Source: a virus. Taken from it: a stretch of 61,754 nt of DNA. The notes under the pieces were generated by a model. That model saw only the letters and a list, made by a program, of their open reading frames with translations. It was not told where the DNA came from and ran no database searches. This document shows positions 7,869 through 39,112 of the stretch, piece after piece (position 1 is the first letter of the stretch; each line of letters opens with the position of its first letter). A program made the translations under genes and the position numbers. The stretch is taken from IMG/VR virus record IMGVR_UViG_3300044983_000045, positions 1-61,754 of that record; one strand, written 5' to 3'.

Positions 7869-7873
7869 GAACA

Positions 7874-10025: not shown

Positions 10026-10720
10026 TCGTTGGCGGTTCGTCAGGCATCGGGCGCGACACGATTCCGTACATGGAGGGCATGGGCCATCGCGCCACGGCGT
10101 TGCCGAGAGGGACGCGGAACGTCTGCGATGCTGAGTATTTGCGGGACATTGATTCTAAAAATCCCGTGTCCAGCCTGTTGTTCTGTCAACGCTATCGAGG
10201 CGATGATGACGATTGGATCAACGAATGGGCTGTTTCTCTGACGAGGACGAAGGAACTAATTGAATGGAGCGCTGCGAATACGGCGGTGTCCTCCATCGTC
10301 GTGATGGCCTCTGTTGCTGCCGTCTCCGTCGAAGAAGAACAGCCCGTCAGCTACCACGCCTGTAAAGCCGCCCTCGTGGAGATGGTGAAGTACTACGCGG
10401 TGACGCTCGGGCCGAGGCGGATTCGTGTCAATGCCATCATCCCCGGTCTGACGATCAAGCCAGAAGCGCGGGCGTTCTACGACAGCCATCCTGAACTCGA
10501 AGCCACGTACCGAGACATCACACCGCTCGGGCGCATGGGCACCGTGGAAGACCTCGCGCACCTCGTGGACTTCCTGATCTCTGACCGTTCCAGTTATCTG
10601 ACGGGACAGACCATCACGCTCGATGGCGGCATCGGTCTCCGCTCGGCATGGGCGTTGGCGCGACGTGTTTCTCCGGCTCTCCGAGACATTCCGGTGACAC
10701 AACGAAAGGCGGCGAAGTGA
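10010..10720 (+). CDS. Short-chain dehydrogenase/reductase (classical SDR; ketoreductase-like)
   Basis: [18 protein letters not shown] (YxxxK) and a RVNAIIPG...GR.G..EDLA...FL.SD.SSY.TGQ tail. Confidence 0.75.
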
Positions 10721-15814: not shown

Positions 15815-18580
15815 GTGTCTAACCTGCCAGTGCGTCAGTCCGGCCTCACACGTCTTGAGCGTATCAAGGAGGCGGTGCGGTCCTATTGGCTGGGACCGAT
15901 CATGTCCAGCGACCCACGCGCCAGAGACTTCTTCGGCGGATCGCCCACCAGTACAGGCGTGTCGGTCGATGAGTTCTCCGCGATGAACTACTCGGCCGTC
16001 TATGCCGCGGTGCAGTTGATTTCGTCGCAGGTCGGCAATCTGCCTCTGGTCCTGTACAAGAAGCTACCAGGAGGCGGGAAGACCCGCTACGAGGCGCATC
16101 CGCTCTATCGACTTGTGCATGATCGGCCGAATCCGGAGATGTCGTCACTCGTCTGGCGCGAGAGCCTTCAGGCGCATGTGTTGACGTGGGGCAATCTGTA
16201 TTCGGAGATCGTCCGCAATGGCGAAGGGCGTCCTGTGGCGCTGTGGCCGATTACACCAGACCGAGTGACGCCGTTTCGTCGTGGGTCGGATACCCCGCTC
16301 GAGTATCGCATCGTGAATGGTGACGGGAGCGATGATTTTATCGCCGCCGCCGACATGATCCACGTACCAGGGCTGGGGTTCAACGGGATCATCGGCTATT
16401 CCGTCATCCAGAAAATGCGGGAGTCGATCGGGCTCGGCATGGCCGCGGAGCGCTTCGGTGGCGCGATGTACGGGAACGGTCTGGCCATCGGTGGCGTCGT
16501 GTCCTTTAAAGGCCCGAAGCCGCAAGAACTCTCAGACGCCAACTATCTCGCCTCGCTCAACTCGAAGCATCAAGGCGTGGATCGCGCGCATAGAATCCTC
16601 GCGCTCTACAACGATGCGAAGTACGAGCGGATGAACATTCCGCCGAACGACGCTCAGTTCCTCGAAACGCGGCAATTCCAGGTCGATGAAATTGCACGGT
16701 GGTTCAATCTCCCGCCGCACAAACTCAAAGAACTGATGCGCTCGACGAACAACAACATCGAACACCAGAACCTGGAGTATTACATTGACTGCCTGTCGCC
16801 GTGGCTGGAACGGTGGGAACAGGAACTCTGCGAGAAGCTGATTTCGCCACTAGAGCGGAATCAGCAGGAGATCGAGTTCGTCGCGGACGGCCTCTTGCGC
16901 GGAGATGTGACATCCCGTGGAGAGTTCTACAGTAAGCAATTCAGCATTGCGGGGCTGAAGCCGAACGAGATGCGAGCGAGCGAGAATCGTAACCCGATCG
17001 ATGGCGGGGACGACGCGTTCGTCGCACTGAATCTCATTCCGTTGAAGTTGGCGGTTCCGTATTACGAGGCGTTGATCGATTCGACGAAAGCGAAGGCCGA
17101 AGCGGATCGGCGTCCACCGCCGCCTCCTCCGCCGCCGCCGGGCAATGACCAGAATGCCGGACGGGCGTGGGAAGTGCTTCAGGAGGAACTCGCGACAGCG
17201 CGCCGGATCGCGCAAGAGTTGGAAGACGCCAAGGATCGGGCGGCTGTCGAAAGTGCGTCCGCACTCGCGCGAGAACAGGAAGCACGGAAGGCCGACGTGG
17301 AGCGGCTGACGGCTGAGGCTACCAGGATCGGCCTTGATCTGATGAATGCCGTCCGCGATAGGGGCGTGGTGGTTGAGGAGCGCGATGCGGAGCGCAGCCG
17401 CAACGCTGACCATGCGGCGGCAACCGCGTCGATGGAAGCAGCCGCGGTGGAGCTTCGTGCCCAAATCGCGACGCTGACCACGGAAAGCGAGGCGACACAG
17501 CGCGAACTCGCCACCGCCACGGAACGCATCGCCCTGATCGAAGCCGACTATCAGCGAGTGTGCGGAGAGAAGACGAATCTTGAAGGCTGCGTCACGTCGG
17601 CCGGCCTCACGATCATAGCGCTGGAAACCGAACGCACCGAACTCAAGAGCCAGGCGGAAGGACTCAGTCTCGATGTCGTCAAGGCGCAGCGTGAGACGGC
17701 AGCAGCCGAGGCACGCGCGGCCGAGGTGGAAGTCGGACGGTCAGAGGCGCTGACGCTCGCCGCTGAGACTGCAATCGCACGGGACGAAGCACTGGCGACC
17801 GCTGAGCGGGCTGAGGCAGCCCGCGTGGAATGGCAACAGCAGGCCGAGAGCCTGAAGGCGGCGGCTCAACAGGTCGATAGCGAACGCGCACAGGAACGCG
17901 AGACAGCACTACAGCGCATCGCGGCCTTGGAAGCGGAAGGCCAACGGCTGATCGAGGCGCGGACCCATGCCGATGAAGTAAATCAGGCGACCGTGACGGA
18001 ACTCCGCGGACAGATCGACGCCGTAACGCAGGAAATGGCGTCCACCACGGCGGCGCTGCTTGAGGCGAAGACCGTGATCGGGACGCTGGAGGCGACACGT
18101 GACAGCCAGCGCGCACTCCTGACGGCCTCAGACGAGGCCATCGCGGCTCACACGGCGGTGCGTCAGCAGCTCGAAACACGACTCGCGGAGACACGATTGG
18201 CCATCCGCGGCACCGTCGTTGATGCAGTGAACCGCCTGCTGGCCAAGGAAACGGAACGGGCTCGAAAGGCCCAAGCCTCACCGGAAAAGTTGGGTGCCTG
18301 GATCCATACGTTCTATCCGATCCATGAGGACTTCTGCCGGATCGCTCTGAAGCCGGCGGTGCGTGCATTGTTGATCGCACACGGGTCCGATGTGCCCGTC
18401 GATCGTCTGTTGGACCGAATGGTGCTCGCGCACATCAGCGAGTCGACGCGGCAGTTGCAGGGCGTGCTGCAGGATTCAGACATCGAGAGTCTCCCGCCGG
18501 CGCTGGAACGTCTGCTGCGTCGATGGGAAGCGGAACGGGCGGAATCGTTTGCCGATCGCATTTTAACCGAGGTGGCCTAG
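15815..18580 (+). CDS. Portal protein (HK97 family) with an approximately 500-aa C-terminal coiled-coil extension
   Basis: AGGAGGA lies 8 nt upstream of GTG 15815. The first ~420 aa have portal motifs (VSVDEFSAMNYSAVYAAVQLIS...WFNLPPHKL...). Then come a P10 linker (17117-17146) and a long A/E/R/Q-rich heptad-like region. Confidence 0.85.
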   Translation: MSNLPVRQSGLTRLERIKEAVRSYWLGPIMSSDPRARDFFGGSPTSTGVSVDEFSAMNYSAVYAAVQLISSQVGNLPLVLYKKLPGGGKTRYEAHPLYRLVHDRPNPEMSSLVWRESLQAHVLTWGNLYSEIVRNGEGRPVALWPITPDRVTPFRRGSDTPLEYRIVNGDGSDDFIAAADMIHVPGLGFNGIIGYSVIQKMRESIGLGMAAERFGGAMYGNGLAIGGVVSFKGPKPQELSDANYLASLNSKHQGVDRAHRILALYNDAKYERMNIPPNDAQFLETRQFQVDEIARWFNLPPHKLKELMRSTNNNIEHQNLEYYIDCLSPWLERWEQELCEKLISPLERNQQEIEFVADGLLRGDVTSRGEFYSKQFSIAGLKPNEMRASENRNPIDGGDDAFVALNLIPLKLAVPYYEALIDSTKAKAEADRRPPPPPPPPPGNDQNAGRAWEVLQEELATARRIAQELEDAKDRAAVESASALAREQEARKADVERLTAEATRIGLDLMNAVRDRGVVVEERDAERSRNADHAAATASMEAAAVELRAQIATLTTESEATQRELATATERIALIEADYQRVCGEKTNLEGCVTSAGLTIIALETERTELKSQAEGLSLDVVKAQRETAAAEARAAEVEVGRSEALTLAAETAIARDEALATAERAEAARVEWQQQAESLKAAAQQVDSERAQERETALQRIAALEAEGQRLIEARTHADEVNQATVTELRGQIDAVTQEMASTTAALLEAKTVIGTLEATRDSQRALLTASDEAIAAHTAVRQQLETRLAETRLAIRGTVVDAVNRLLAKETERARKAQASPEKLGAWIHTFYPIHEDFCRIALKPAVRALLIAHGSDVPVDRLLDRMVLAHISESTRQLQGVLQDSDIESLPPALERLLRRWEAERAESFADRILTEVA

Positions 18581-19152: not shown

Positions 19153-19400
19153 GCGACGGCTGGCATCCGATCAGTGACGACGGCGAGCGCATGGTGACCG
19201 CTGCACCGATGGGCTATTCGCTGTATGCCGTGCATGGATCGATCGATCCGACGGCGTCCACGCGACGGTTTCACTGGTCCGGATTCGTGCCAGAGTTCGC
19301 GCACGCCGAGCAGTGGTTGAAGGACGGACAGATCATCGGCGAGATCGTGGAGATCACGGTGACGCCGAAACCGGTGAAGGTCAAGAGTGGGGCGGCGTAG
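19149..19400 (+). CDS. Hypothetical protein
   Basis: 83-aa ORF coupled by ATGA to the protease gene. Confidence 0.5.
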   Translation: MSDGWHPISDDGERMVTAAPMGYSLYAVHGSIDPTASTRRFHWSGFVPEFAHAEQWLKDGQIIGEIVEITVTPKPVKVKSGAA

Positions 19401-20964
19401 TTTCAGCCACGGCGGCACGATTCGGAAGGCGTCTCGCCAGCAGCAACAGGCATGGGTGCCGAAGGTCCGCGATCAGTCGGCCCTGAAGATGACCGCCGAG
19501 ATCCTGCAGGACATCTGGAAGGCGCAAGCGCTCTACGATGCCGGGGACTGGGACGCCTGCGAGCCGGTGATCCGACGACTGCTCAAGGCGGGGTTGACCC
19601 AGCCGCTGACGTATGACGCGCTCGGCAGCGTGGCGCAGTTCCAAGGTCGGATGGACGTCGCGATCGAGTGTTTCCGAAAGGCGCTGTCTGTCGATCCAGG
19701 CTACGTGGAAGCGCGCAACCGGATCATCATGATCCTCGACGCGTTACCAGAGACATCTCCGGTGACCGCAGCACGCGAGCGGGCGAAATGGTGGGCGCAG
19801 CATGGCGCGGATCGGTACGCACGCCGCCGGCCGCCGCTCGGGAGCCGCGATCCGCATCGGCCGATTCGCGTCGGCTATGTGTCAGCGGACTTCCAGTTTC
19901 ACAGCGCCGCGACGGTGTTTCACCGGATCGTCACCGAGCACAGTGAGGGGTTCGTTCCGTATCTCTACTCATCGACGCCGTACACGAAGTACGACCAGAT
20001 CACGAACACCTATCGGGCCATGCCCGGCTGGCGGGATGTGGTGGACTGGCCAGACATTCTCGTCGCCGAGAAGATCCGCGATGACCAGATCGACGTGCTG
20101 GTGGACCTGTCCAACTTCACCGCGCACAATCGGTTGGGTGTCTTTGCGTCTAAGCCAGCGCCGATTCAACTCACGGGGTTCGGATACGCCCTCGCGACCG
20201 GGTTTCCGTGTTTCGATGGCGTGCTAACTGACCGAATCGTGACGCCACCAGGCACGACGGAAGGCGAGCCACCCGTGTATCTTCCATCGGTGATCGACTA
20301 CCAAGGCACTGAAGGACTACCCGAGGCCAACCCGCTGCCGTGCCTGACCGAGCGGCCGACGTTCGGGGTGTTCCAGCGCAGTCTGAAGATCAACGCGCAT
20401 GGGATCCGGCTGTGGGCGCGCGTGCTCGAGCGATTGCCTGAAGCGCGACTGATCATGAAGTCGCACTATTCACCGAGTCTCCAGCAGTGGATCCGTGAGC
20501 AGTTCGGCGCACAGTCGGCCCAAGTCGAGATCCGCGGCGCGACGAGTTCGTACGAGCACAAGTTGATGTATTCCGAGATCGACCTGAACCTTGACCCGTT
20601 CCCGCAAACGGCGGGCGTGTCTGGCTGTGACGGGATCTATATGGGCGTGCCGATGGTTACGCTTCTCGGTGAGCGCGCGATTCAGCGGACGTCGGCGTCA
20701 TTGCTCACGAACTTGGGCCTGACCGACTTCATCACCACGTCTGAGGATGCGTACGTGGACACCGCCGTGGAAAGGGTGACAACGCGGAGAGACGAGCTCG
20801 CGGCGATTCGGCAGACGTTGCGGGCGACGTTGGTCGCCTCACCGATCTGTTTCGGATACACCGAAGCCGTGGAAGCCGTCTATCGTGACCTATGGCACAC
20901 CTATTGTGCGAAGCCGATGACGCTCGCCGATGCTGCCTATCGGCTACAGGAGGCTGTCGCATGA
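19387..20964 (+). CDS. TPR-containing GT41-family glycosyltransferase (O-GlcNAc transferase / SPINDLY-like)
   Basis: N-terminal TPR-like helices (AQALYDAGDWDACEPVIRRLLKAG...ALSVDPGYVEA). Then IRVGYVSADF..HS...DVLVDLS.FT..NRL.VFA.KPAPIQ....GY..TTG...D.....D and PTFGVF....KI, LDPFP..GGVS..D, which are typical GT41 catalytic lobes. The start is uncertain (GTG 19387 or ATG 19489). Confidence 0.75.
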   Translation: MGRRSFSHGGTIRKASRQQQQAWVPKVRDQSALKMTAEILQDIWKAQALYDAGDWDACEPVIRRLLKAGLTQPLTYDALGSVAQFQGRMDVAIECFRKALSVDPGYVEARNRIIMILDALPETSPVTAARERAKWWAQHGADRYARRRPPLGSRDPHRPIRVGYVSADFQFHSAATVFHRIVTEHSEGFVPYLYSSTPYTKYDQITNTYRAMPGWRDVVDWPDILVAEKIRDDQIDVLVDLSNFTAHNRLGVFASKPAPIQLTGFGYALATGFPCFDGVLTDRIVTPPGTTEGEPPVYLPSVIDYQGTEGLPEANPLPCLTERPTFGVFQRSLKINAHGIRLWARVLERLPEARLIMKSHYSPSLQQWIREQFGAQSAQVEIRGATSSYEHKLMYSEIDLNLDPFPQTAGVSGCDGIYMGVPMVTLLGERAIQRTSASLLTNLGLTDFITTSEDAYVDTAVERVTTRRDELAAIRQTLRATLVASPICFGYTEAVEAVYRDLWHTYCAKPMTLADAAYRLQEAVA

Positions 20965-21137: not shown

Positions 21138-21333
21138 CCTCAGCCAACACAGTGAGCGGCGCACGCTCTCGGCGGTGTCCGAGAGCCACACGCTGCGTAA
21201 AGCCGAAGTGACCTGACGGTGATCGGGCGCTTCCACAACAACGGACTGAACTCGTTTTCAGTTCGTGCGTGGAATGCCGCTAGGTGCCATGTGTCGCCCA
21301 GCCGTTCCTCCGCACGACCCCAGAGGAACGCAC

Positions 21334-22701
21334 ATGACCCGAGTCGAACTGCTCGAAAAGAAAGGACGCTTGGCCAATGAAGCCAAGGAGATCCTGACCG
21401 CGGCCCAGGCCGATGGTCGCGAAACGCTCCGCAAGGAAGAGGAAGACAAGTTCCACGCGATCCACGCCGACATCGAGGCATTGACCAAGCAGGTCAGCAT
21501 CCTCGACAAGCAGGACGAAGTCGAGCGGTCGATCGCCGAACCCGGCAGCCGCCGGAGCGAGCCGAATCAGCTCGAGAGCCAGCGCAGTGCCCAGCCATCC
21601 AGTATCGCCCGTGGCAATCGTGACCAACAGGACGCCATCCGGGGCTGGTTCCTGGCTGGTGCGCCAAGTGCGGGCGCGGTGCCGCAGCACTATCGGGATG
21701 CTGCACGAAGGGTCGGGTTGAACCTCGACAACAAGAGCCTGAACTTCCGTCTGGCCGGCAACAGCCTCCAGTCCCGCACCTCAGACGAGATGCGCGTGTG
21801 GCAGACCCTCCACGACGAAGAGCGCGCGATGGCCGGCCCGCAGTCGACCACAAGCGTCGGCGGCTATTCGATTCAGGACGCCGCGATGCGCGAGGTCGAA
21901 GTCGCGCTCTTGGCCTACGGCGCCATGCGTCGCGCGGGTTGCACCATCATCCGCACGGATACCGGTGGACCGCTGCCGATTCCGACCGTCAACGACACCA
22001 CCAACGTCGGGGCGCTCATCGGTGAAGGTGTGACCGTCGGCACGCAGGACGTCGCGTTCGGCCAGCTCGTGCTGGATGCGTGGAAGTACACCTCGAAGTC
22101 CGTGCTGGTCTCGACCGAACTGATGCAGGACAACTCGGTCAACCTGCCGCAGCTCCTCGGTCGCCTGCTCGGCGAGCGTCTCGGCCGCATCACCAACACG
22201 CACTTCACGACCGGCACCGGCACAGGCCAGCCGAACGGCGTCGTAACGGCGGCCACCTTCACCCAGGCGACGACCGGTAACACCACGAACATCACGCTGA
22301 CCAACCTCGTGGGCCTCTACCACTCGGTCGATCCGGCCTATCGCGACAACGCGAAGTGGATGATGAACGACAACTCGCTGTCGAAGATCAAGCTGCTGAC
22401 CGATTCGCAGGGCCGTCCGCTGTGGCTGCCTGGGCTCGTCGATCGCGCACCTGACACCATTCTTGGTTCGCCGTACGTCATCAACCAGGACATGTCCTCG
22501 ATGACGATCAGCGGGAAGTCGATTCTGTTCGGGGACTTCTCGAAGTACTGGATCCGCGACGTGCGGGACGTGACGCTGCTCCGGCTCGACGAGCGGTTCG
22601 CCGAGTTCCTGCAGGTGGCGTTCCTCGCGTTCATGCGGACGGACGGCGACCTGTTGGACGCCGGCACGCACCCGATCAAGGGCTACCAGAACTCCACGTA
22701 G
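21334..22701 (+). CDS. Major capsid protein (HK97 fold) with N-terminal delta/scaffold-like domain
   Basis: N-terminal coiled segment, then GGYSIQD...LLAYGAMRRAG.TIIRT.TG.PL.IP.V.D...AFGQLVLDAWKY...VSTELMQD...LGERLGRI.N.HFTTGTGTGQP.G. GAGGAA lies upstream of ATG 21334. Confidence 0.9.
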   Translation: MTRVELLEKKGRLANEAKEILTAAQADGRETLRKEEEDKFHAIHADIEALTKQVSILDKQDEVERSIAEPGSRRSEPNQLESQRSAQPSSIARGNRDQQDAIRGWFLAGAPSAGAVPQHYRDAARRVGLNLDNKSLNFRLAGNSLQSRTSDEMRVWQTLHDEERAMAGPQSTTSVGGYSIQDAAMREVEVALLAYGAMRRAGCTIIRTDTGGPLPIPTVNDTTNVGALIGEGVTVGTQDVAFGQLVLDAWKYTSKSVLVSTELMQDNSVNLPQLLGRLLGERLGRITNTHFTTGTGTGQPNGVVTAATFTQATTGNTTNITLTNLVGLYHSVDPAYRDNAKWMMNDNSLSKIKLLTDSQGRPLWLPGLVDRAPDTILGSPYVINQDMSSMTISGKSILFGDFSKYWIRDVRDVTLLRLDERFAEFLQVAFLAFMRTDGDLLDAGTHPIKGYQNST

Positions 22702-22759: not shown

Positions 22760-23080
22760 ATGAAAGTCACCATCATTCCTTCCAGCGTGCTCGGCGGGCA
22801 GGGCAGCATCGGATCGGGTTCGCTAAGCGTGCCGAATGCGGCTCCCGGCGTCGGACCGATCAACGGCGAGATGGGAAACGACGACGTCGTGGTCTCGATC
22901 GCGAATCCCGGTAACGACAACTTCAGCAGCGAAGCGGATGAAGCCTTCCCGATGCACCTTGATGGAGGCATTCAGCCGATGGCCACACCCGCGCCGAGTC
23001 CCGTCATGGCGACGCATCCGCCGGGCGGGAACGAACCCATGAGTCAGTACTCCACGCAAGGCCCGATTCCGAAAGGGTGA
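22760..23080 (+). CDS. Hypothetical protein (possible head decoration or accessory protein)
   Basis: 106-aa ORF with CAGGAG 8 nt upstream. Gly/Pro/Ser-rich. Located directly after the capsid gene. Confidence 0.55.
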   Translation: MKVTIIPSSVLGGQGSIGSGSLSVPNAAPGVGPINGEMGNDDVVVSIANPGNDNFSSEADEAFPMHLDGGIQPMATPAPSPVMATHPPGGNEPMSQYSTQGPIPKG

Positions 23081-24096: not shown

Positions 24097-24425
24097 GGAA
24101 CTGCAATCCTGGCCGCTTAAATAAGTGGGTCACGTTGTCGCAGTGTCCGCAACTCACGGATGACAGCGATGGGTGGTTCGAGCCGTTGGATCCCGTCGGT
24201 GCGTGGGTCTCGATCAAGCCGACGCTGGCGGCGAACGGACGCACCACGGAACACATCGTCGAGATGCGCCATCACCCACAAGTGTCGGTCGATACGCGGA
24301 TCGTGTACGAAGACTCCGCCAAACCGGTCGGGAAGAGGACGCGGGAACTCTTCGTCAAGGGCGTGCAGAACGTCGATGAGATGAACGACACGCTGGTCCT
24401 GATCTGCGAAGAGGTCGCTCCATAG
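24084..24425 (+). CDS. Head closure / head-tail adaptor protein (SPP1 gp16-like)
   Basis: 113 aa. LNKWVTL...W..VGAWVSIKP...R.V.....RELFVKGVQNVDE.N..LVLICEEV pattern, and position. Confidence 0.65.
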   Translation: MPRVGNCNPGRLNKWVTLSQCPQLTDDSDGWFEPLDPVGAWVSIKPTLAANGRTTEHIVEMRHHPQVSVDTRIVYEDSAKPVGKRTRELFVKGVQNVDEMNDTLVLICEEVAP

Positions 24426-24847
24426 TGGGTGCCAGAGTCGTGTTGAACGGCCTCGACGAACTGCGCGCGCAGTTACGGGCGCTGCCTGAAGACTTGGCGA
24501 CCGAAGCTCAAGAGATTGTCGTCGCCAACGCCAACGCGGCGGCGAACGATATTCGCTCAGGCTATCCGCACGGGCCGACGGGCAATCTACGAAGCCATGT
24601 CACGGTGGCGCAGACGCGTTCACGCGTGACGACGACGGCCAAGGTGAGCAGCCGCGCACCGCACGCCAACATCTTCGAGCGCGGGACCGCAAACCGTGTC
24701 ACGAACAAAGGCTGGAACCGCGGCCGGATGCCACAACCGCCAGCGTCGGAACGGATGATCCCAAAGGTCGCTCGTCAACGCCGGATCATGGTCGAGGCAC
24801 TTAAGGCGCTGGTTCTGCGGCACGGGGCGACCGAGGTCAGCGAATGA
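24425..24847 (+). CDS. HK97 gp10-family neck/tail-completion protein
   Basis: GTG start. LDELRAQLRALPEDLATEAQEIVVANANAAANDIRSGYPHGPTGNLRSHV. Confidence 0.7.
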   Translation: MGARVVLNGLDELRAQLRALPEDLATEAQEIVVANANAAANDIRSGYPHGPTGNLRSHVTVAQTRSRVTTTAKVSSRAPHANIFERGTANRVTNKGWNRGRMPQPPASERMIPKVARQRRIMVEALKALVLRHGATEVSE

Positions 24848-25581
24848 CGCCGACCCTGACGATCGTCGTGCCGACGATTGGCCGTCAGACGCTGGAGACG
24901 ACGCTGGCCTCCATTGCGCGGCAGGATCTGCGGCCAGGCGACCGCGTCGTAGTGGCGTTGGATACCTACCAGGAACCGCATCGGCCTGACGTGGCGGCCC
25001 TCGTCGCGCGCTACGGCTTTGAGCTCTTGCCGGTCGATGGTGGCGTGCATTTCATGGGCAACCCGCAACTCAATGCGGCGATCGCTACCTGTACGACGGA
25101 CTACTTGTGCGCGCTCGGTGATGACGACGTGTATGTCGACGGAGCCATTGCCACGATCCGCGCGAGGCTGAAACCCGGCCGCGCGCTTCTGTTCCAGTTC
25201 TACGCCCCACCCTACTTGGTGGCTGGCGATCCGCGCCGGTTCGTCATGTGGGCCGATCGGAAGTTGCGGGTGGCCAACATCTCCGGGTGCTGCGTCGTCG
25301 CGCCGCGTGAAGCACTTGTGCCGGTCAGCGCTCAGCAGCGGTGCGAGGTGGACTTCGACTGGATCCGAGACATTGTCGCCCAGACCGGTCGCAGGCCGAT
25401 CTGGCTCGAGCAGGTGCTGATCATCGCGCGTCCTGATCTCAGGAACGGGGAGCCCGTGCATCAGGGCGTCGCGACATGCCCTGGCTGTGGGTTCCGTGGG
25501 TTCGTTGAGGACTTCGCGGGCGGGCTCTGCGGAGACTGTGCGCCTGTCGTGATCCGCGAACTGCTGGGAGCCTCCGCGTGA
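24844..25581 (+). CDS. GT2-family (GT-A fold) glycosyltransferase with C-terminal Zn-ribbon
   Basis: LTIVVPTIGRQTLETTLASIARQDLRPGDRVVVALD, DxD-like LGDDDVY, and C-terminal CPGCG...CGDC. The start overlaps the upstream stop. Confidence 0.75.
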   Translation: MTPTLTIVVPTIGRQTLETTLASIARQDLRPGDRVVVALDTYQEPHRPDVAALVARYGFELLPVDGGVHFMGNPQLNAAIATCTTDYLCALGDDDVYVDGAIATIRARLKPGRALLFQFYAPPYLVAGDPRRFVMWADRKLRVANISGCCVVAPREALVPVSAQQRCEVDFDWIRDIVAQTGRRPIWLEQVLIIARPDLRNGEPVHQGVATCPGCGFRGFVEDFAGGLCGDCAPVVIRELLGASA

Positions 25582-26681
25582 CAGTCCGCAAGTTGCGGCT
25601 CCTGCTGTGTCACCCCGGAGCGAGTTGGGCGACCGCGGATATTTTCTGGGGGCTCCTGCACGGTCTGAAGTATCACGACGTCGAGGTCGTACCGTTCCGG
25701 CTCGATCAGCGCTTCGCGGCCTCGCAGTCGTCCTTGTACTGGCTGTGGCGCACGAAGAAGAAGACCGAACCGAATCTGGAGCGGCCCAACGCGGCGGATC
25801 TGAGTTATCACGCCAGCATCGGGGCGCTGGAAATGGCCCTCCGACATCACGTCGATTGTGTCGTGGTGGTCAGCGCCATGCTGCTCCATCCCGACGTGTT
25901 GATCATGATGAAGGAAGCAGGACTGCGCGTCGTGGTCCTGTTCACGGAATCGCCGTACGACTACGACGCCGAGATGCGAGTCGCGAAGATCGTGGATGGG
26001 GGTTGGACGAACGAACGGTGTGTCGTCCGCGCGTTTCGCTCGGTCAATCCGCACTTCGGCTACCTGCCGCACGGCTGGAACCCGCTGGTGCATCGCACCG
26101 ACACGCCGATCGATGACAGCGTGCCGGCGCATGACGTCGTGTTCGTCGGGACTGGCTTTCGAGAACGGTATCGGTTCTTCAACAGCATCGACTGGACCGG
26201 GATCAACCTCGGTCTCTACGGGACATGGGATCCACGTCTGCTGAATAAGCAAGTGCGGGCGTGTCTCCAGAACGGCCCGGTCGCTAACGAACAAGCCGTG
26301 TTGCTCTATCGCCGAGCGAAGGTTGGACTGAATCTCTATCGCACCTCGCAAGGATGGGGATCGCAAGCGCCATCGATCGCCCATGCGGAATCGGTGAATC
26401 CGCGGGCGTATGAACTGGCGGCGTGTGGCACGTTCTGTCTCTCAGATTACCGATCGGAATCGGCGGAAGTCTTCGGCGATCTCGTGCCGATGTTCCGTTC
26501 ACCGATTGAGGCGGCGGCCCTGATCCGGAAATGGCTGGCTGATGAAACTGGCCGTCAGCGGATCGCGGCAGCACTTCCTGCGCGTGTCGCAGAGGCTTCG
26601 TGGATCCACCGCACCAAGACGGTGTTGGGGGATCTGCAACAGCTCCTTTCAGGACGGCCGGAGTTGGCCGTAGGAGCCTAA
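25578..26681 (+). CDS. GT-B glycosyltransferase (CgeB-like / Glyco_trans_1_2)
   Basis: DVVFVGTG...R..FF......INLGLYG..W and the C-terminal NPRAYELAACGTFCLSDYR.E..E.FGDLVPMF.S..EA...I..WL are typical of CgeB/DUF3880-type GT1 proteins. Confidence 0.65.
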   Translation: MTVRKLRLLLCHPGASWATADIFWGLLHGLKYHDVEVVPFRLDQRFAASQSSLYWLWRTKKKTEPNLERPNAADLSYHASIGALEMALRHHVDCVVVVSAMLLHPDVLIMMKEAGLRVVVLFTESPYDYDAEMRVAKIVDGGWTNERCVVRAFRSVNPHFGYLPHGWNPLVHRTDTPIDDSVPAHDVVFVGTGFRERYRFFNSIDWTGINLGLYGTWDPRLLNKQVRACLQNGPVANEQAVLLYRRAKVGLNLYRTSQGWGSQAPSIAHAESVNPRAYELAACGTFCLSDYRSESAEVFGDLVPMFRSPIEAAALIRKWLADETGRQRIAAALPARVAEASWIHRTKTVLGDLQQLLSGRPELAVGA

Positions 26682-26685
26682 TTTC

Positions 26686-27090
26686 ATGTCTGCACATGCC
26701 GGCCGCTCTGGTGCTGTCTATCTGGCGATTGAATCCGCCACAGGCGTCGCCACTTCCACGATCAAGCTCAACGCGTGGACCCTCGATCGCTCGACGGACA
26801 CCTATGACGTCACGTCCTTCGGAGACGCGAACAAGACGTATGTCCAGGGCCTCCCTGACCTGAAAGGCACGATCTCGGGATCGTGGGATGACTCGGAAAC
26901 GAAACCGTTTGCGGGCGCGTCCTCGTCCACGGGCGTCAAGCTCTATCTCTATCCGGACATCACCAATTCGCCGACGAAGTACGCCTACGGCACGGCGTGG
27001 CTGAACGCCTCGATCGAAACGCCAGTCGCCGGCGCGGTCAAGATCACGGCGAACTTCGTCGCGGCAGCGAGCTGGACGGTCAACCTGTAA
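26686..27090 (+). CDS. Major tail (tube) protein
   Basis: 134 aa with AGGAG upstream. G.AVYLAIES....T..IKLNAWTLDRSTDTYDVTSFGD....YV.GL.D..G.ISG.WD is a siphovirus tube-protein pattern. It sits 5' of the chaperone and tape measure genes. Confidence 0.8.
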   Translation: MSAHAGRSGAVYLAIESATGVATSTIKLNAWTLDRSTDTYDVTSFGDANKTYVQGLPDLKGTISGSWDDSETKPFAGASSSTGVKLYLYPDITNSPTKYAYGTAWLNASIETPVAGAVKITANFVAAASWTVNL

Positions 27091-27870: not shown

Positions 27871-28593
27871 ATGGCTACCGACTTAGAAAAGCGCGAGCGC
27901 CAAAAGGCGTACTACCTCGCAAACCGCGACAGGATTATCGCGCGGGTGTGTGAGCGTGCGCGCGAGAAGGCGGCGGAGATCAAGGCGTACAAGCAGGCGT
28001 GGCAGGCGAAGAACGCCGAGCGGATTGCAGCGAAGAAGCGGGTCTATCAAGCCGAGCATCGCGACGACATCTCCGCTTACCACAAGGCGCGATACGCCGC
28101 ATCTCCAGAAGCAGCCAAAGCTCGCTCCATCGCCTACAACAAGGCACACGCAGCCAACGTACGTGCGGCGAATAAAGCCTACCGTAGTGCCAATAAGCAC
28201 AAGATCGCGGCTGCTAAACGCGAGCACCAGGCCGCCAACGCAAAGCGATTGAACGAGATCAGTCGATCGTACTACCGAGAGAACAGGAATGTGCTCAGGC
28301 CAAAGATGAACGCCTATATGAAGGGGTTTCGCCTGAGGCATCCAGAGAAGCACGCTGAAAAGGAAGCGCGCCGAAGAGCTCAGAAGAAGCTGACGCAGGT
28401 CGAGAAGGTCGACTACAGGCAGATCTTGGAGGACTCGCGCGGTTTGTGCGGCATCTGTCGCAAGCCTCTTGATTTGTTCGGCATCGATTTCGACCATATC
28501 GTTCCTTTGGCCCGTGGTGGATCTCACACGCGCCAGAACCTGCAAGCGACGCACTCGTATTGCAACCGCGCTAAAGGCGCAAGGACGGCATGA
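27871..28593 (+). CDS. HNH endonuclease with N-terminal basic helical repeats (free-standing, homing-endonuclease-like)
   Basis: C-terminal CGICRKPL...DFDHIVPLARGGSHTRQNLQATHSYCNRAKG. The N-terminus has reiterated (K/R)AY..AN...I.A.K(R) units. It is inserted between the chaperone and tape measure genes. Confidence 0.8.
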   Translation: MATDLEKRERQKAYYLANRDRIIARVCERAREKAAEIKAYKQAWQAKNAERIAAKKRVYQAEHRDDISAYHKARYAASPEAAKARSIAYNKAHAANVRAANKAYRSANKHKIAAAKREHQAANAKRLNEISRSYYRENRNVLRPKMNAYMKGFRLRHPEKHAEKEARRRAQKKLTQVEKVDYRQILEDSRGLCGICRKPLDLFGIDFDHIVPLARGGSHTRQNLQATHSYCNRAKGARTA

Positions 28594-28596: not shown

Positions 28597-31500
28597 TTGG
28601 CGGTCACCGCAAAATTTAGTGCAGATTTTTCGTCCTTCATCCAAGCCATCGACAAGGCTGAAATCGCGCTCGTCGACTTCGGTAAGGGTGCGGGGAAGGT
28701 CGAATCGTCGCTCAACCGCATGGTTGACAATTTTTCAGGGCGCAAACTGGTGCAAGAGGCGTCTTTGATGACGATCGCGGTGGAGAAGGCCGGAGGTGTC
28801 GCGAAGCTGACGGCACAGGAGATCGAACGGGTCGGCGCGAAGGCGAACGAAGCCGCCGACAAGATGAAGCGGCTGGGCTATGAGGTGCCGGCTGGACTGC
28901 AGAAGCTCGCAGACGAAACGAAAAATGCGTCCGTTGAGACGGACAGCCTTGGTTTGTCGTTTACCAAGTTCGTCGGCGGGCTCGTCACCGCGCAAGCCAT
29001 CCTCGGCGCCATCAAGGGCGTGTTCAACGCGTTCACTGGTGAAATTTCGTCTTCGATCAAAGCGGCTGGCGATGCGGAAAAGGCACATGTCCAACTCGTC
29101 GCCGCGCTGCGCGCCCAAGGGACAGCAGTCCCGAGCGTCATCACTGCGTTTCAGGGTTACGCGACGGCGCTTCAGAAGACGACGATCTATCAGGACGACG
29201 CCGTTGAGAGTGCGGCGGCCCTTCTCGTCACGATCGGCAATGTCATGCCGCGCGATATGGAGAAGGCACTGAAGGCGACGACAAATCTTGCGTCCGGTCT
29301 CGGGATCGATCTGGACTCGGCCGCGCGCACGGTCGCAAAAGCGGCGGAAGGGAACACGACGGCCTTACGGAAGGTCGGCGTGGTCATGGACGACACGAAA
29401 GGCAAGACGCACGACTTCGGCCAAGTGCTCGACGCGATAACGGCGAAGTTCGGCGGGCAGGCGGAAGCGATCGCCGGGACGTATCAGGGGCGCCTAGCGC
29501 AACTCGGAAACACTTGGAACAACGTCGAAGAGTCGATTGGGCGCGTCATCACGCAGAACGCGACCGTACTCAAGGCGATGAACAGTGTCAATACGTTAAT
29601 CGATGAACAGACGGGCGAACTAAACGAAAACGCGACCGCAAATAATCTTGTGTCGACATCGGTGATCGGACTAGTGAAGGTGATGGCCGGGTTAGCACAG
29701 GCTGTCGAGTCAGTCGTGGGTGTATTTGAACCGCTGAATCTGGCTGCAGCGAAATTCGAACGGATCAAGCTGAACCTTTCCGATCCGTTGGGGCAAAGCA
29801 TTGAGGTGAGCGTTAGGCTCAAGGAAGTCAATGCGGACATCGACGCGATGACGGCGAGCATCGCGAAGGGCGGAGATGGCGGAAAGGGCCTAGCCAAGAC
29901 ACTCAACGATCTAGCGGCCAAACTCGAAGAGACCCGCGGTAAGACGGTCGCCCTCTCCGACGTGACCGACGGCGCTGCGAATGCGTGGAATCGTCACACC
30001 GTGGCCGTTCATCAAACGTCAGAAGCCGAGAAGAAATTCGCCGAGGCGATGGCGGAACTCAACTCGGCAGGCGAAGGTTGGCGCGGCACGCTGGACGGCA
30101 TTGACGGCGCCGTTGTGGAGTCGGTCAAGTCTTACATCGCCGCCAATGTCGAGCAGGACAAGCTGGCGACAGCCTTTGGCCTCACGGCCGTTCAGGTGAA
30201 GGCTATTGAATCCGCGTTCAAGGCCGAGAAGGAAGCCGCGAAGGACATTCAGGAGATCCACAACAAGATCGAAGCTGGCCTCTACGGGATACATACCGCC
30301 GTCGCGTTCGTCGATGAATCAGAACTGAAATGGGTCGAGACACAAATTAAGGTCGCCGACGCACTGAAGATGGTCGAGCGGAGTATCCCATCTGCTGTCG
30401 CTGGGTTCTACAGTCTCGGCGGAAGCCTTGAGAATGTTGGCCAGAAATCAACAGAGATCGATCAGATCCGAGTGAAGCTGAAGTTGTTTGAGTCGACGGC
30501 GACAGCGGTCTTTCAGCGATTACCGCAGACGTTGATCGCCGCGTTCACAGGCGGGGGCGGCATCATCGGTGGGCTTAAGGCGTTCGGGACCGATATGGGC
30601 GCAGCGCTCTTTGGACCGAAAGGTGCTTTCGCCAGTGTCACGAAAAGCGCGACGGCTGGTCTGACGAAGCTGTTTGGCAGCACGATCGGCGGGGCGCTCG
30701 GCGCGGCGATTCCCGGTATCGGAGCCCTGATCGGTCCGGCCATCGAAGGGCTCAGTAAACTCTTCGGCAAAATCTTCGGCGGCCCGTCACAGGCTGAACT
30801 CGACGGCCGGAAGCTCGAAGCCTCCTTTGAAGCGCAGTTCGGCAGCTTCCAGAAGATGCTCAACGCGGTCGGAGACGTCTACAAAGCCACAGGCCGCACG
30901 TACGAGATGGCAACGGCCGACGTCAAGGCGCTGCTGGACGCGGAGAAACAGGGCGGCGCCGCTGTCCAGACCGTGCTTGACAAGATCAACGGCGCCTTCA
31001 ACGAACAGGCCCAAGACGCTGCGGACTTGACAGCCGCGATCGAGAAGTACGGATTCACGATCGAACAACTCGGTCCGGCGATGCAGAAGCAGAAGCTGGA
31101 CGATCAAGCGAAGGAGCTCGCGAACTCGTGGCGGCTGTTGGTCGGCTCTGGTATTGACGTCGTGGCCGTCGATCAGAAGATGGCCGCGACGACCTGGGAC
31201 TACCTCCAGATTGCCAAGAAGACGGGGCAGGAAGTGCCGGCGGCGATGAAGCCGATCATCCAGTCGATGCTCGACCAAGGCGTGTTCACCGATGAGGCCG
31301 GGAACAAACTGACCGACATGGCGCAACTCGGGATCAAGTTCTCCGAGACGATGTCGGCCGGGTTCGATCGGGTGGTGGACAAACTCCAGACGTTACTGGA
31401 AGGGCTCGGGCTCGTCCCGAAAGCACTCGACGCGATTCCAAATACGAAGACGATCGACATCGGGTTCAACGTAGCCAACCCACCGAACTATCGCGATGGC

Positions 31501-31875
31501 GACAACTACGCCGCACACGGAGGACTCGTCACTAACACCGGCATCCAGTACCTCGCCGGCGGAGGGAACGTCCTTCGGTGGCGTCCCCGTGGCTCGGACA
31601 CGGTCCCCGCGATGTTGACACCCGGCGAAGGTGTCGTCAGTCGCCGCGGGATGCAGACGCTGGGAGCAGACGGGCTATCGAAGTTGAATGCGGGTGGATC
31701 GGCTGGTGCGCGGACGATCTCATTCGGCGACGTCAACATCATCATCCCGCCAGGCACAAACGTCAACGATCCGCAGGCACTTGCGCTGGTGATTCAGCGC
31801 ATCCTACGCGGTGATGTGGCCGGCACGACGACGGCACTCGAAATCCTTGTCGACCGAAGGATCGCCGCAGCATGA
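28597..31875 (+). CDS. Tape measure protein
   Basis: 1092 aa, helical and Ala/Gly-rich, with a glycine-rich hydrophobic segment (GGGGIIGGLKAFG...GGALGAAIPGIGALIGPAIEG). TTG start directly after the HNH stop. Canonical position. Confidence 0.85.
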   Translation: MAVTAKFSADFSSFIQAIDKAEIALVDFGKGAGKVESSLNRMVDNFSGRKLVQEASLMTIAVEKAGGVAKLTAQEIERVGAKANEAADKMKRLGYEVPAGLQKLADETKNASVETDSLGLSFTKFVGGLVTAQAILGAIKGVFNAFTGEISSSIKAAGDAEKAHVQLVAALRAQGTAVPSVITAFQGYATALQKTTIYQDDAVESAAALLVTIGNVMPRDMEKALKATTNLASGLGIDLDSAARTVAKAAEGNTTALRKVGVVMDDTKGKTHDFGQVLDAITAKFGGQAEAIAGTYQGRLAQLGNTWNNVEESIGRVITQNATVLKAMNSVNTLIDEQTGELNENATANNLVSTSVIGLVKVMAGLAQAVESVVGVFEPLNLAAAKFERIKLNLSDPLGQSIEVSVRLKEVNADIDAMTASIAKGGDGGKGLAKTLNDLAAKLEETRGKTVALSDVTDGAANAWNRHTVAVHQTSEAEKKFAEAMAELNSAGEGWRGTLDGIDGAVVESVKSYIAANVEQDKLATAFGLTAVQVKAIESAFKAEKEAAKDIQEIHNKIEAGLYGIHTAVAFVDESELKWVETQIKVADALKMVERSIPSAVAGFYSLGGSLENVGQKSTEIDQIRVKLKLFESTATAVFQRLPQTLIAAFTGGGGIIGGLKAFGTDMGAALFGPKGAFASVTKSATAGLTKLFGSTIGGALGAAIPGIGALIGPAIEGLSKLFGKIFGGPSQAELDGRKLEASFEAQFGSFQKMLNAVGDVYKATGRTYEMATADVKALLDAEKQGGAAVQTVLDKINGAFNEQAQDAADLTAAIEKYGFTIEQLGPAMQKQKLDDQAKELANSWRLLVGSGIDVVAVDQKMAATTWDYLQIAKKTGQEVPAAMKPIIQSMLDQGVFTDEAGNKLTDMAQLGIKFSETMSAGFDRVVDKLQTLLEGLGLVPKALDAIPNTKTIDIGFNVANPPNYRDGDNYAAHGGLVTNTGIQYLAGGGNVLRWRPRGSDTVPAMLTPGEGVVSRRGMQTLGADGLSKLNAGGSAGARTISFGDVNIIIPPGTNVNDPQALALVIQRILRGDVAGTTTALEILVDRRIAAA

Positions 31876-37925: not shown

Positions 37926-38213
37926 GTGAAATTCACGCGTGACGGCTCGATCTGGCTCGTCCTGTTCATCGGAGGACTGGCCGGGTTTCTCGGCGGTCAC
38001 TTCGACCTGTTGGCGAAAGCCTTTCCAGGCATCAGTGCGGCGTGGGAAGCCCGCGTTGAACTCGTGTCCACCCTCTCTGGCTTCGTTGGAGCCTATCTCC
38101 GTATGAGTCCGGCATCGTTGTCGGCTAGCAACGTCATGGCCTCATCAGAGCACGCAGAAACACTCGGGATTGCGGGCGGGGTAAAGACGCCTGATAAGGA
38201 CGCCAGACTATGA
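37926..38213 (+). CDS. Membrane protein (holin/antiholin candidate)
   Basis: GTG 37926. The N-terminal TM is GSIWLVLFIGGLAGFLGG and a second hydrophobic segment is LVSTLSGFVGAYL. The stop overlaps the next ATG. Confidence 0.5.
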   Translation: MKFTRDGSIWLVLFIGGLAGFLGGHFDLLAKAFPGISAAWEARVELVSTLSGFVGAYLRMSPASLSASNVMASSEHAETLGIAGGVKTPDKDARL

Positions 38214-38671
38214 AAGCTAAGTTCGTCTTCCTCGCGCTGCTGTTCCTGCCGCAGATGGTGTCGTGTCAGACGCTCCAGGTGGAGCCTGTTCCGGATTGGG
38301 CCAGCTATGCGACCGCGGCGGTGAATCCGACCGTCGCGGCGGTCCAGGCGTTCCGCTCAGAGCACCGTTGGTGTCGGCTTGGTCAACTCGGCCTCAGCGA
38401 ACTCGTCGTCAACGGCTCAACGCTGACGTTGAAACACTTCATCCGTTCGGCGCGGCCTTGTCTAGGCTGTCCACCTGACGGATTCCCGTCTGGTCATACA
38501 GCGAATTCGGTCATTGGCATTTCGTCAGGCTGGCAAGTGGGGATGACCTTTCCAGTGAGCACGGCGGGATTGCGAATGGCGGCGCACCGACACACGCCGA
38601 TGCAAGTGCTGACCGGGGCGCTCCTCGGGGCGGGTTCTGAATACGTCGGGCATTTACTGAGGTGTGAGTGA
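38210..38671 (+). CDS. Secreted PAP2-superfamily phosphatase
   Basis: Signal peptide MKAKFVFLALLFLPQMVSC. PAP2 motifs KHFIRSARP (KxxxxxxRP), PSGH and RMAAHRHTPMQ (SRxxxxxHxxxD with D->Q). Confidence 0.7.
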   Translation: MKAKFVFLALLFLPQMVSCQTLQVEPVPDWASYATAAVNPTVAAVQAFRSEHRWCRLGQLGLSELVVNGSTLTLKHFIRSARPCLGCPPDGFPSGHTANSVIGISSGWQVGMTFPVSTAGLRMAAHRHTPMQVLTGALLGAGSEYVGHLLRCE

Positions 38672-38759
38672 TGGCGGAAGGTACAGGAATCGAACCTGTG
38701 CGCGCCGAAGCGCGGCCTCCGGTTAGCAACCGGGCGCGATGCCTCTCTGCCAACCTTCC
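38672..38759 (-). tRNA. tRNA-Ser (anticodon GCT), class II
   Basis: The reverse complement is GGAAGGT-TG-...-CCGG-TTGCTAA-CCGG-[long arm GGCCGCGCTTCGGCGCGC]-ACAGG-TTCGATT-CCTGT-ACCTTCC-G-CCA. Folded by eye, 88 nt with encoded CCA. Confidence 0.8.
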
Positions 38760-38764
38760 GAAAA

Positions 38765-38843
38765 TGGTGCGCGAGGTGGGACTTGAACCCACAAAATCTC
38801 CACGGTCTGAACGTGGCGCCTTTGCCAATTTGACCACTCGCGC
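38765..38843 (-). tRNA. tRNA with anticodon CAG (Leu codon CUG) but a short (7-nt) variable region
   Basis: The reverse complement is GCGCGAG-TG-GTC-AAATTGGCAAA-GGC-G-CCACG-TTCAGAC-CGTGG-AGATTTT-GTGGG-TTCAAGT-CCCAC-CTCGCGC-A-CCA. The D-arm is Leu-type (3 bp, 11-nt loop) with A73. Confidence 0.65.
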
Positions 38844-38852
38844 ATTCGAAGA

Positions 38853-38929
38853 TGGTTCGAACGGTGGGAGTCGAACCCACACTAGACAGGCTCTCAACCT
38901 GTTCCCTCTGCCAATTGGGGTACGTTCGA
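38853..38929 (-). tRNA. tRNA with anticodon GAG (Leu codons CUC/CUU) but a short (5-nt) variable region
   Basis: The reverse complement is TCGAACG-TA-CCCC-AATTGGCAG-AGGG-A-ACAGG-TTGAGAG-CCTGT-CTAGT-GTGGG-TTCGACT-CCCAC-CGTTCGA-A-CCA. It has a U1:A72 pair and A73. Confidence 0.65.
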
Positions 38930-38930
38930 A

Positions 38931-39007
38931 TGGTGGGCCGCGCAGGATTCGAACCTGCACCTGTACCGCTTTTGAGACGGTGGCCTCTGCCGTTGGGCTA
39001 GCGGCCC
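38931..39007 (-). tRNA. tRNA with anticodon CAA (Leu codon UUG) but a short (6-nt) variable region
   Basis: The reverse complement is GGGCCGC-TA-GCCC-AACGGCAG-AGGC-C-ACCGT-CTCAAAA-GCGGT-ACAGGT-GCAGG-TTCGAAT-CCTGC-GCGGCCC-A-CCA. Confidence 0.65.
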
Positions 39008-39021
39008 GACGTATTCAGTTG

Positions 39022-39112
39022 TGGCGGAGAGAGGGAGGATCGAACTCCCAAGAGGTTGGTTACTCGGTGGTTTTCGGGACCACTGGACTTGCCGGCCGTG
39101 TCCAATCTCTCC
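39022..39112 (-). tRNA. tRNA-Ser (anticodon CGA), class II, with C at position 33
   Basis: The reverse complement is GGAGAGA-TT-GGAC-ACGGCCGGCAA-GTCC-A-GTGGT-CCCGAAA-ACCAC-[long arm CGAGTAACCAACCTCTTG]-GGGAG-TTCGATC-CTCCC-TCTCTCC-G-CCA. Confidence 0.7.

Follow-up and report, generated by a model that had tools for sequence, protein, structure and literature searches.

In Bacillus subtilis, CgeB, which is encoded in the same operon as CgeA, has been reported to glycosylate the exposed Thr112 of CgeA, a doughnut-shaped homohexamer by cryo-EM; sugar transfer was seen as a modest in-vitro shift with UDP-glucose, and the GT2 enzyme CgeD has been proposed as the extender of the glycan (PMC13577073). 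In some mycobacteriophages, glycosyltransferases (GTs) that the phage itself encodes decorate subunits of the capsid and of the tail tube with glycans, as two papers summarise (PMC11600133, PMC12619734). Here we describe a locus in the virus record IMGVR_UViG_3300044983_000045, whose whole length of 61,754 nucleotides is referred to as the window, a 61.7-kb siphophage-like genome that is temperate as judged from its integrase gene. Two genes for predicted soluble glycosyltransferases, a GT-A enzyme (GT2, 24844-25581) and a CgeB-like GT-B enzyme (GT1, 25578-26681), lie in its tail module directly before the gene of the major tail protein (MTP, 26686-27090), and the CgeB-like gene is the fixed partner of this MTP family. 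To our knowledge, the phages for which virion glycosylation has so far been demonstrated are a small number of actinobacteriophages; in these it influences recognition by antibodies, and it was reportedly described by Freeman et al. in 2023 for the mycobacteriophages Che8, Corndog and Myrna.

The locus recalls the CgeB/CgeA/CgeD system in several respects, as GT1 belongs to the same family (PF13524, 'YkvP/CgeB' GT-B enzymes), a likeness that holds at the level of the family, its gene adjoins that of a small ring-forming structural protein which is the proposed O-glycosylation acceptor, and a GT2 enzyme is the proposed extender of the glycan, with a hydrophilic coat on a proteinaceous shell as the result. 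Unlike the Bacillus genes, however, those of the window stand in a phage tail module and not in a sporulation operon, the tail-tube protein is unrelated to CgeA, and NCBIfam gives GT1 no equivalog match. Because CgeB/CgeA/CgeD and the phage precedents parallel the gene arrangement, we propose initiation by GT1 and extension by GT2. With the mycobacteriophages the window shares the proposed outcome, the modification of capsid and tail-tube subunits by phage glycosyltransferases (with methyltransferases in some clusters), which is read here from genes only. The enzymes of the window are not homologous to the mycobacteriophage ones at the BLAST level, and tblastn found no match of GT1 (E ≤ 1) or GT2 (E ≤ 1e-3) in 50,697 cultured-phage records; it is a further difference that the core glycosyltransferase is locked to the tube gene in the structural operon, that its cassette includes radical-SAM/SPASM enzymes and that a GT41 gene lies beside the capsid gene. 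In the way it works, the system of the window may thus resemble the virion glycosylation of mycobacteriophages, but on sequence comparison its enzymes do not belong to the mycobacteriophage set.

Other described glycosyltransferases are more distant in context. SPINDLY/OGT (GT41) enzymes modify Ser/Thr of cytoplasmic proteins, and the neighbouring protein at 19387-20964 shares their architecture of tetratricopeptide repeats (TPRs) and GT41 catalytic region, although it has only about one or two TPRs. TarP is a soluble prophage GT-A enzyme that acts on wall teichoic acid (WTA); here too a GT-A enzyme is found in a temperate phage, and TarP is a structural match of GT2. Enzymes of the TarP/Gtr type are, however, produced in lysogens and are not known to be encoded within the tail operon, whereas in the window the linkage to a structural gene is fixed and no membrane partners were found in the block 24425-27090. 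The T4 alpha- and beta-glucosyltransferases share the GT-B fold with GT1 (1bgt, rank 30) but differ in having no sequence similarity to it, in the structural-module context of the window and in that no hydroxymethyl-base pathway was recognised among the open reading frames (ORFs) scanned. A full-text search of one literature collection returned no description of PF13524 genes linked to phage tail-tube genes; a virome preprint lists viral 'CgeB' as a sporulation-related auxiliary gene (PMC13317609).

The CgeB-type gene and its pairing with the tail-tube gene

An earlier note on this DNA, made from the sequence alone, had suggested a survey of related phages for glycosyltransferase insertions at this position. 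We carried it out, labelling the loci and sequences of relatives compared with the window L### and P####, and found that GT1 is fixed upstream of MTP while GT2 is optional. In close relatives a tblastn synteny map of the loci gave the order gp10, GT2, GT1, MTP, two small ORFs and tape measure, which is shared by an NCBI metagenome contig. When loci were seeded with GT1 and had room downstream, MTP started no more than 77 nt past the GT1 stop in nearly all, and three GT1-seeded loci carry insertions of 0.7-0.9 kb between the two genes. Seeding from the other side, with an MTP profile on IMG/VR loci that have at least 1.2 kb upstream, gave a GT1-like gene at most 360 nt upstream of MTP in 75 out of 75. 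The pairing is kept down to 44-47% GT1 identity and is seen in contigs binned to metagenome-assembled genomes of Actinomycetes, Chloroflexia, Coriobacteriia and Parcubacteria, in which tblastn found no window-type GT2. The Chloroflexia contig CAVSNU010000005, 1.35 Mb long, is one that has such a related pair. GT1 also ranks first in conservation among the structural-module proteins of every relative tabulated: in the five closest, identity is 78-84% for GT1, 72-78% for MTP, 63-74% for the major capsid protein (MCP), 56-60% for GT2 and 38-58% for gp10, and across non-redundant loci GT1 is more conserved than MTP in three quarters (75/100). The pairing of the CgeB-like gene with this MTP family is invariant, and for that reason the idea of virion glycosylation, which the earlier note had placed on the tail tube or the head, appears strengthened for the tail tube.

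The ORF at 25578-26681 (plus strand) encodes 367 amino acids, with a GC3 of 0.73 as in other genes of the window. The protein matches PF13524 (Glyco_trans_1_2) with 71.1 bits against a cut-off of 25 (E 1.2e-19, residues 199-350), and its structural model (pLDDT 83.7) has the two Rossmann domains of a GT-B fold. The PDB matches of the model are GlgM, MshA and BshA, retaining transferases of the GT4 type, with E values of 1e-10 to 1e-8 (best 1.7e-10), and among the viral structures of BFVD several of the top matches are named 'YkvP/CgeB glycosyl transferase-like' (E 1.8e-11 and 7.4e-11); a search of PDB chains with the GT1 sequence gave no match. About 100 columns of the family alignment are invariant, the PRAYELAACG motif included, and the invariant residues E124 in TESPYD, R197, R255, R276 and E279 in PRAYELAACG are candidates for the counterparts of the proposed residues E83, R155, W196 and R238 of CgeB. 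No transmembrane-like segment was found in GT1, the highest KD19 value (1.93) falling on a buried Rossmann strand and helix, which contain D, H and P. Profile and model agree with the earlier assignment to the CgeB type, and we describe GT1 as a soluble CgeB-type GT-B glycosyltransferase of predicted activity.

A word-indexed protein search returned 1614 homologues of GT1, the best 120 of them each with PF13524 and an identity of 60% or more, and an exhaustive HMMER search (E ≤ 1e-30) resolved the family into 381 clusters at 50% identity. A GT1 relative is encoded by 326 IMG/VR contigs. These relatives are abundant and entirely uncultured, and the GT2 family, with 87 proteins, is far narrower. 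GT1 is the conserved core enzyme of the module.

The genes around GT1 are coupled. Upstream of GT2 lies an HK97-gp10-like neck/tail-completion gene of 140 amino acids (24425-24847, plus strand; PF04883 at 24.3 bits with a cut-off of 21.4, phrog_5 'tail completion or Neck1' at 8e-14), and downstream of GT1 the MTP gene encodes 134 amino acids on the plus strand (phrog_10528 at 3e-9; phrog_1407 and phrog_9522, 'major tail protein'), so that the placement of both glycosyltransferases between a gp10-like gene and the tube gene, as originally described, stands. The stop of the gp10-like gene overlaps the GT2 start in ATGA (24844-24847) and the GT2 stop overlaps the GT1 start in GTGA (25578-25581), as the proposed translational coupling to the neighbours would have it. 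GT1 ends with TAA at 26679-26681, MTP starts 4 nt further on, and an AGGAG Shine-Dalgarno sequence for MTP (26672-26676, plus strand) lies inside the 3' end of GT1, 9 nt ahead of the start codon at 26686. The gp10-GT2-GT1-MTP block revealed no site resembling a promoter or a terminator. Given the overlapping stop and start codons, the Shine-Dalgarno sequence inside GT1 and the lack of an internal promoter or terminator, GT2 and GT1 are read from the sequence as products of the late structural operon, made together with the tail proteins.

GT2, the variable cassette and the terminator slot

GT2 (24844-25581, plus strand, 245 amino acids; GC3 0.79, as in other genes of the window) matches PF00535 with 24.3 bits against a cut-off of 23.3 (E 3.5e-5) and PF13641 at E 2.7e-5. 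The majority of its 87 homologues have a precomputed PF00535 match, and they sit in the same phage context wherever checked. The AlphaFold model (pLDDT 94, pTM 0.90) has a GT-A fold whose best PDB matches by Foldseek are the fucosyltransferase WrtF (E 1e-11), SpsA and TarP, with TM of about 0.6, and TarS is also among its GT-A structural matches; a sequence search of PDB chains gave only a spurious match at 0.052. The DxD-type metal/nucleotide-sugar motif is DDD, D93-D95 in LGDDDVYVDGA (25120-25128, plus strand), and G92-D93-D94-D95 is invariant across 31 aligned homologues. In the same alignment the cysteines C212, C215, C229 and C232 of a C-terminal CxxC-x13-CxxC zinc ribbon (25477-25539, plus strand) are nearly invariant. 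GT2 has no transmembrane-like segment (maximum KD19 1.25). The profile, fold and motif evidence thus agrees with the earlier description of a GT-A enzyme with a GDDDV motif and a C-terminal zinc ribbon, and the suggested profile and structure searches place both ORFs in glycosyltransferase families and folds, with no membrane-like segment in either, as expected of the soluble enzymes that had been claimed. We describe GT2 as a soluble, family-2-type GT-A glycosyltransferase of predicted activity, which would serve in the cassette as an accessory enzyme that extends the glycan.

The relatives differ in what lies between gp10 and GT1, and a census of 67 non-redundant loci revealed GT-A enzymes in 24, up to three of them in series in L007, an S-adenosylmethionine (SAM) methyltransferase (PF08241) in 14, a radical-SAM/SPASM enzyme in 12, a methyltransferase with a zinc ribbon in three and a cytidylyltransferase in two. 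An ORF of about 139 amino acids is found in 24 of the 67, and in L060, L088 and L101, for example, it stands alone between gp10 and GT1. GT2 is optional and belongs to the cassette that the genes for GT-A enzymes, methyltransferases, the radical-SAM/SPASM enzyme and the cytidylyltransferase make up, and such variability upstream of GT1 is the pattern expected for glycan tailoring. The radical-SAM/SPASM enzyme, of about 360 amino acids (PF04055, PF13186), is encoded just upstream of GT1 (2829-4001 in L052, for example; the other loci are L036, L037, L045, L049, L050, L059, L074, L075, L083, L093 and L114) and is unusual to find beside a glycosyltransferase gene in the tail module of a phage.

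In some relatives the two enzymes are one protein. P0049, L014 (2442-4226) and L015 (9989-11875) have GT1 fused to a GT2 of the window type, and in P0098 and P0101 its fusion partner is another type of GT-A enzyme; the two kinds of fusion are independent. Long forms of GT1, with an N-terminal extension of about 165-200 amino acids, make up nine of the 150 best representative clusters and are consistent with GT-A fusions, an assignment made by length only. In the fusions of the window type the zinc ribbon is gone exactly at the junction, and a free-standing small zinc-ribbon ORF is found 5' of GT1 in two distant relatives, L023 (3090-3308) and L025 (6175-6381). The zinc ribbon of GT2 may be a docking module toward the GT-B enzyme.

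The closest cultured relative of the window MTP is the annotated MTP of Sinorhizobium phage phi3LM21 (29.6% identity), in which a 'minor tail protein U' gene lies directly upstream of MTP. The glycosyltransferases of the window therefore do occupy the usual slot of the tail terminator, in line with the gene order presumed in the earlier note. GT2 and GT1 were considered as terminator homologues themselves (of the lambda gpU, SPP1 gp17 or RcGTA g8 type) and rejected, both being complete glycosyltransferase folds. A profile of the terminator-like ORFs of the relatives and three single sequences, searched with filters off against the six frames of the window, revealed no terminator homologue (no match below E 0.38). 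In the relatives the ORF of about 139 amino acids has the size and the position of a tail terminator, between gp10 and the glyco-cassette, as at 8780-9211 in L008, 2071-2487 in L014 and 5224-5604 in L025. Its profile gave weak but collinear, full-length matches to RcGTA Rcc01690 (E 0.16) and SPP1 gp17 (E 0.17) among the top five in the PDB. The positional equivalent in L025 matches the PHROG 'tail terminator' at 2.5e-11, and hhalign of the 139-residue ORF to this PHROG-confirmed terminator gave a probability of 1.2%. The resemblance of the relatives' ORF to a terminator is thus weak, and the ancestral layout was probably gp10, terminator, glyco-cassette, GT1 and MTP. About a third of the relatives keep a terminator-like ORF upstream of the glycosyltransferase cassette, while the clade of the window and its nearest relatives alone lacks it, and for this reason the substitution of the terminator by glycosyltransferases does not hold for the class.

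The capsid side, the sugar island and the rest of the genome

A second kind of glycosyltransferase is encoded on the head side of the module, about 300 nt upstream of the MCP start (MCP, 21265-22701). The protein at 19387-20964 (plus strand) matches PF13844 with 90.9 bits in addition to TPR models, and its structural matches in the PDB are SPINDLY (7y4i, E 4.7e-71) and the Thermobaculum OGT (5djs, 8e-45); the GT41 enzyme of the earlier note is thus a genuine SPINDLY/OGT-like protein glycosyltransferase. NCBIfam holds no model matching GT41, GT1 or GT2, and tblastn found no match of GT41 in the cultured-phage collection. The gene occupies the same position in L003, L012, L013, L015 and L180, and no GT41 was found between the protease and capsid genes of L007. 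In L008 (2888-4620) and L009 (3681-5413) a paralogous GT2 and GT1 pair fills this slot between protease and capsid, and in L024 a GT1-like gene (6479-7531) follows directly after the capsid gene.

These observations bear on the order of action. The earlier note spoke of initiating and extending transferases; a scheme in which GT41 initiates and GT2 and GT1 extend is not supported by the relatives: GT1 precedes MTP in many that have no window-type GT2 detectable by tblastn, L007 lacks GT41, and L008 and L009 have GT2 and GT1 paralogues in its place. Because GT2 or GT41 is missing in some relatives and the paralogous pair fills the GT41 slot, it seems more likely that GT1 is a protein-directed initiating enzyme in its own right, and it is plausible that the SPINDLY-like GT41 is its capsid-directed counterpart.

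Two features of the capsid region may be recorded beside the GT41 gene. The C-terminus of the MCP (22681-22701) reads GYQNST(A) in the window, L003, L004 and L012; GT41 is present in the window, L003 and L012, and the L004 contig ends short of the GT41 position. The MCP ends in KYATQA in L007, which is without GT41, and ends differently in L015, which has it, a pattern that is confounded by phylogeny and is suggestive at most. Directly after the capsid gene lies an ORF of 106 amino acids (22760-23080), rich in G, S, P and T and with a proline-rich, mucin-like C-terminus, for which a homologue was found only in L010; it could be a candidate decoration protein and O-glycosylation target.

The nucleotide-sugar island (2717-11910, plus strand) contains, by Pfam and NCBIfam, two SDR epimerase/dehydratases, a Zn-ADH, a sugar C-methyltransferase, a split transketolase and an HldE-like bifunctional enzyme with reversed domain order, the adenylyltransferase followed by the PfkB kinase (NF008454 at E 7.5e-40, below the cut-off). 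The HldE-like enzyme and the split transketolase lie within 3637-7219 and suggest a pathway to a nucleotide-activated heptose or a related sugar. The scan of IMG/VR gave no relatives of the HldE-like protein, and no sugar-island gene was found in the DNA of the relatives examined. The island noted earlier exists, but no close relatives of its genes were found in related contigs, and a link between the island and the conserved glyco-module is not supported.

The remaining genes follow the order of a siphophage-like genome, with TerS from 13599, TerL from 14132, a portal protein of 921 amino acids (15815-18580), an S78 protease from 18523, a gp6-like adaptor from 23455 and a head-closure protein from 24084. 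The Pfam portal domain spans only residues 60-391 of the portal, leaving a C-terminal extension of about 530 amino acids whose conservation in relatives is only partial (the match in L008 covers residues 15-410 and 725-919). On the 3' side of MTP are two small ORFs in the chaperone position, followed by an HNH endonuclease (27871-28593; PF01844, E 2.5e-10), the tape-measure gene (28597-31875) and the distal tail genes; in most relatives examined the tape-measure match begins about 50-120 nt past the second small ORF. Another HNH gene occupies 53508-54206. The integrase is encoded at 43244-44347 on the minus strand, and a cluster of five tRNA genes, also on the minus strand (38672-39112; Ser-GCT, Leu-CAG, Leu-GAG, Leu-CAA and Ser-CGA), adjoins a PAP2-family gene (38210-38671). 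A megablast search of INPHARED gave no DNA-level match to the 11-kb structural block of the window among cultured phages, and no capsid protein of a cultured phage exceeds 42% identity to the MCP.

The proposed acceptor, the alternatives and their meaning

We consider it rather probable that soluble glycosyltransferases made from the late operon coat the tail tube, GT1 putting the first sugar on Ser/Thr of the tube protein and GT2 extending it. With a nucleotide sugar as donor, GT1 would attach the first sugar to exposed Ser/Thr residues of MTP in the cytoplasm, before or during polymerisation of the tube late in infection; GT2 would then extend it, possibly docked to GT1 by its zinc ribbon, and the outcome would be a glycan coat over the many copies of the tube subunit. 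Methylation and other tailoring of the glycan would fall to the other cassette genes of the relatives, GT41 before the capsid gene would probably play the corresponding part for the head, and the benefit may be surface masking, stability or adsorption. The sequences show the folds and motifs of the enzymes, their solubility, the operon coupling, the GT1-MTP pairing, the variable cassette and the recurrent GT-A/GT-B fusions; which protein is the acceptor, that the glycan is O-linked, in which order the enzymes act, what the ribbon does and how the phage benefits are what we infer from them.

Candidate sites can be named in the tube protein. The family linked to the glycosyltransferases has an S/T/G-rich insertion at about residues 14-21 of MTP (26725-26748), with IESATGV, STSAGGV and STTGSGT as examples, which is missing from the MTP of phi3LM21, a phage without these glycosyltransferases, in an alignment at 29% identity, and T43, S80 and S109 are further conserved residues that might serve as acceptors; loop and residues are leads only. 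N-glycosylation of the NGT type at the conserved N-K-T/S sequence of MTP (FGDxNKTYVQGL) was considered and rejected, as two family members have no S/T there and GT41 is SPINDLY/OGT-like and not HMW1C-like.

Several points count against glycosylation of the tube. The single-sequence PF00535 score of GT2 is marginal (24.3 versus 23.3 bits), and MTP has no obvious long Ser/Thr tract and no C-terminal glycan tail of the kind found in mycobacteriophages. The choice of acceptor comes from gene adjacency, in a module whose gene order is generally conserved, and the S/T-rich candidate loop from an alignment at only 29% identity. Moreover, the phage is temperate, carrying an integrase, which leaves room for modification of host glycans, and the activity of CgeB on CgeA is itself weak, being a slight gel shift (PMC13577073).

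The main alternative is that the acceptor is a host glycan on the cytoplasmic side, for instance a precursor of teichoic acid, LPS or capsule, whose modification would alter the cell surface and result in superinfection exclusion, receptor masking or lysogenic conversion. The integrase would suit such a role, as would the prophage WTA glycosyltransferase TarP and TarS among the structural matches of GT2, the nucleotide-sugar island and the PAP2 phosphatase-family gene of the window, and a TagD-like cytidylyltransferase in the cassette of one relative. Surface-conversion morons are, however, usually patchy and near the lysogeny module, and neither a pairing of 75 in 75 with one tail-tube family nor the highest conservation in the module would be expected of one; here the genes are part of a late structural operon, in which stop codons overlap the start codons that follow and an internal promoter is lacking, and they have no membrane segment or Gtr-like flippase partner, so that we regard modification of a host glycan as unlikely. 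Glycosylation of phage DNA against restriction, through hypermodified bases in the manner of the T4 alpha- and beta-glucosyltransferases, appears highly improbable, although phage glycosyltransferases are often DNA-modifying (10.1101/2023.12.21.572611) and the T4 beta-glucosyltransferase (1bgt, at rank 30) and a 'DNA beta-glucosyltransferase' occur among the lower GT-B matches. These are generic GT-B matches far below the GT4- and CgeB-like ones, no enzyme that forms hydroxymethyl-pyrimidines was recognised among the window ORFs scanned, and the location in the tail module and not in the replication module, with the strict linkage to MTP, would be left unexplained.

Two further explanations tie GT1 to the virion. 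GT1 could be mainly a morphogenetic factor of the tail, a chaperone or capping aid that perhaps compensates for the missing terminator, with catalysis secondary or lost, and its rank as the most conserved module protein in the relatives tabulated, its constant position next to the MTP gene and the lack of a recognisable terminator in the window's clade would all agree with this. But GT1 is equally conserved in relatives that keep a terminator-like gene, it has a complete GT-B fold with no terminator similarity, the motifs of its nucleotide-sugar-binding domain are invariant, and the accompanying methyltransferases, radical-SAM enzymes and GT-A enzymes make sense only if a glycan is made, which leaves a purely morphogenetic GT1 very improbable. 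Alternatively, the acceptor might be another virion protein, such as the capsid, the tape measure or the tail fibres, for which the GT1 paralogues beside the capsid gene in L008, L009 and L024 and the small S/T/P-rich ORF at 22760-23080 could be cited; we think this quite unlikely, since the GT1 copy considered here is invariably the gene immediately before MTP while everything upstream varies. Glycosylation of the tube protein itself remains the reading that we favour, and it could be taken further: tail-tube glycosylation may be a built-in, near-essential step of tail morphogenesis in this lineage, with a dedicated CgeB-type enzyme co-evolving with the tube protein and the terminator lost in the window's clade, and the cassette may be a hot spot acting as a 'serotype' locus that diversifies the glycan coat, like bacterial O-antigen loci. 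This extension is speculative, and we regard it as rather unlikely.

What is of interest here is mainly the invariant pair of genes for an enzyme and its proposed substrate, its metagenomic breadth and the swappable tailoring cassette. If tube glycosylation is correct, the GT1-MTP pair would be a simple genomic marker for glycosylated virions and, when its two genes are co-expressed, a tractable system in which the protein of a self-assembling tube is O-glycosylated, and the annotation of such virome genes as sporulation 'CgeB' auxiliary metabolic genes (PMC13317609) would be corrected. Glycan-coated tails would then be widespread in environmental phages, as judged by the 326 IMG/VR contigs and 381 clusters, and the enzymes making the coats would come from a family of which, at the BLAST level, cultured phages give no example.

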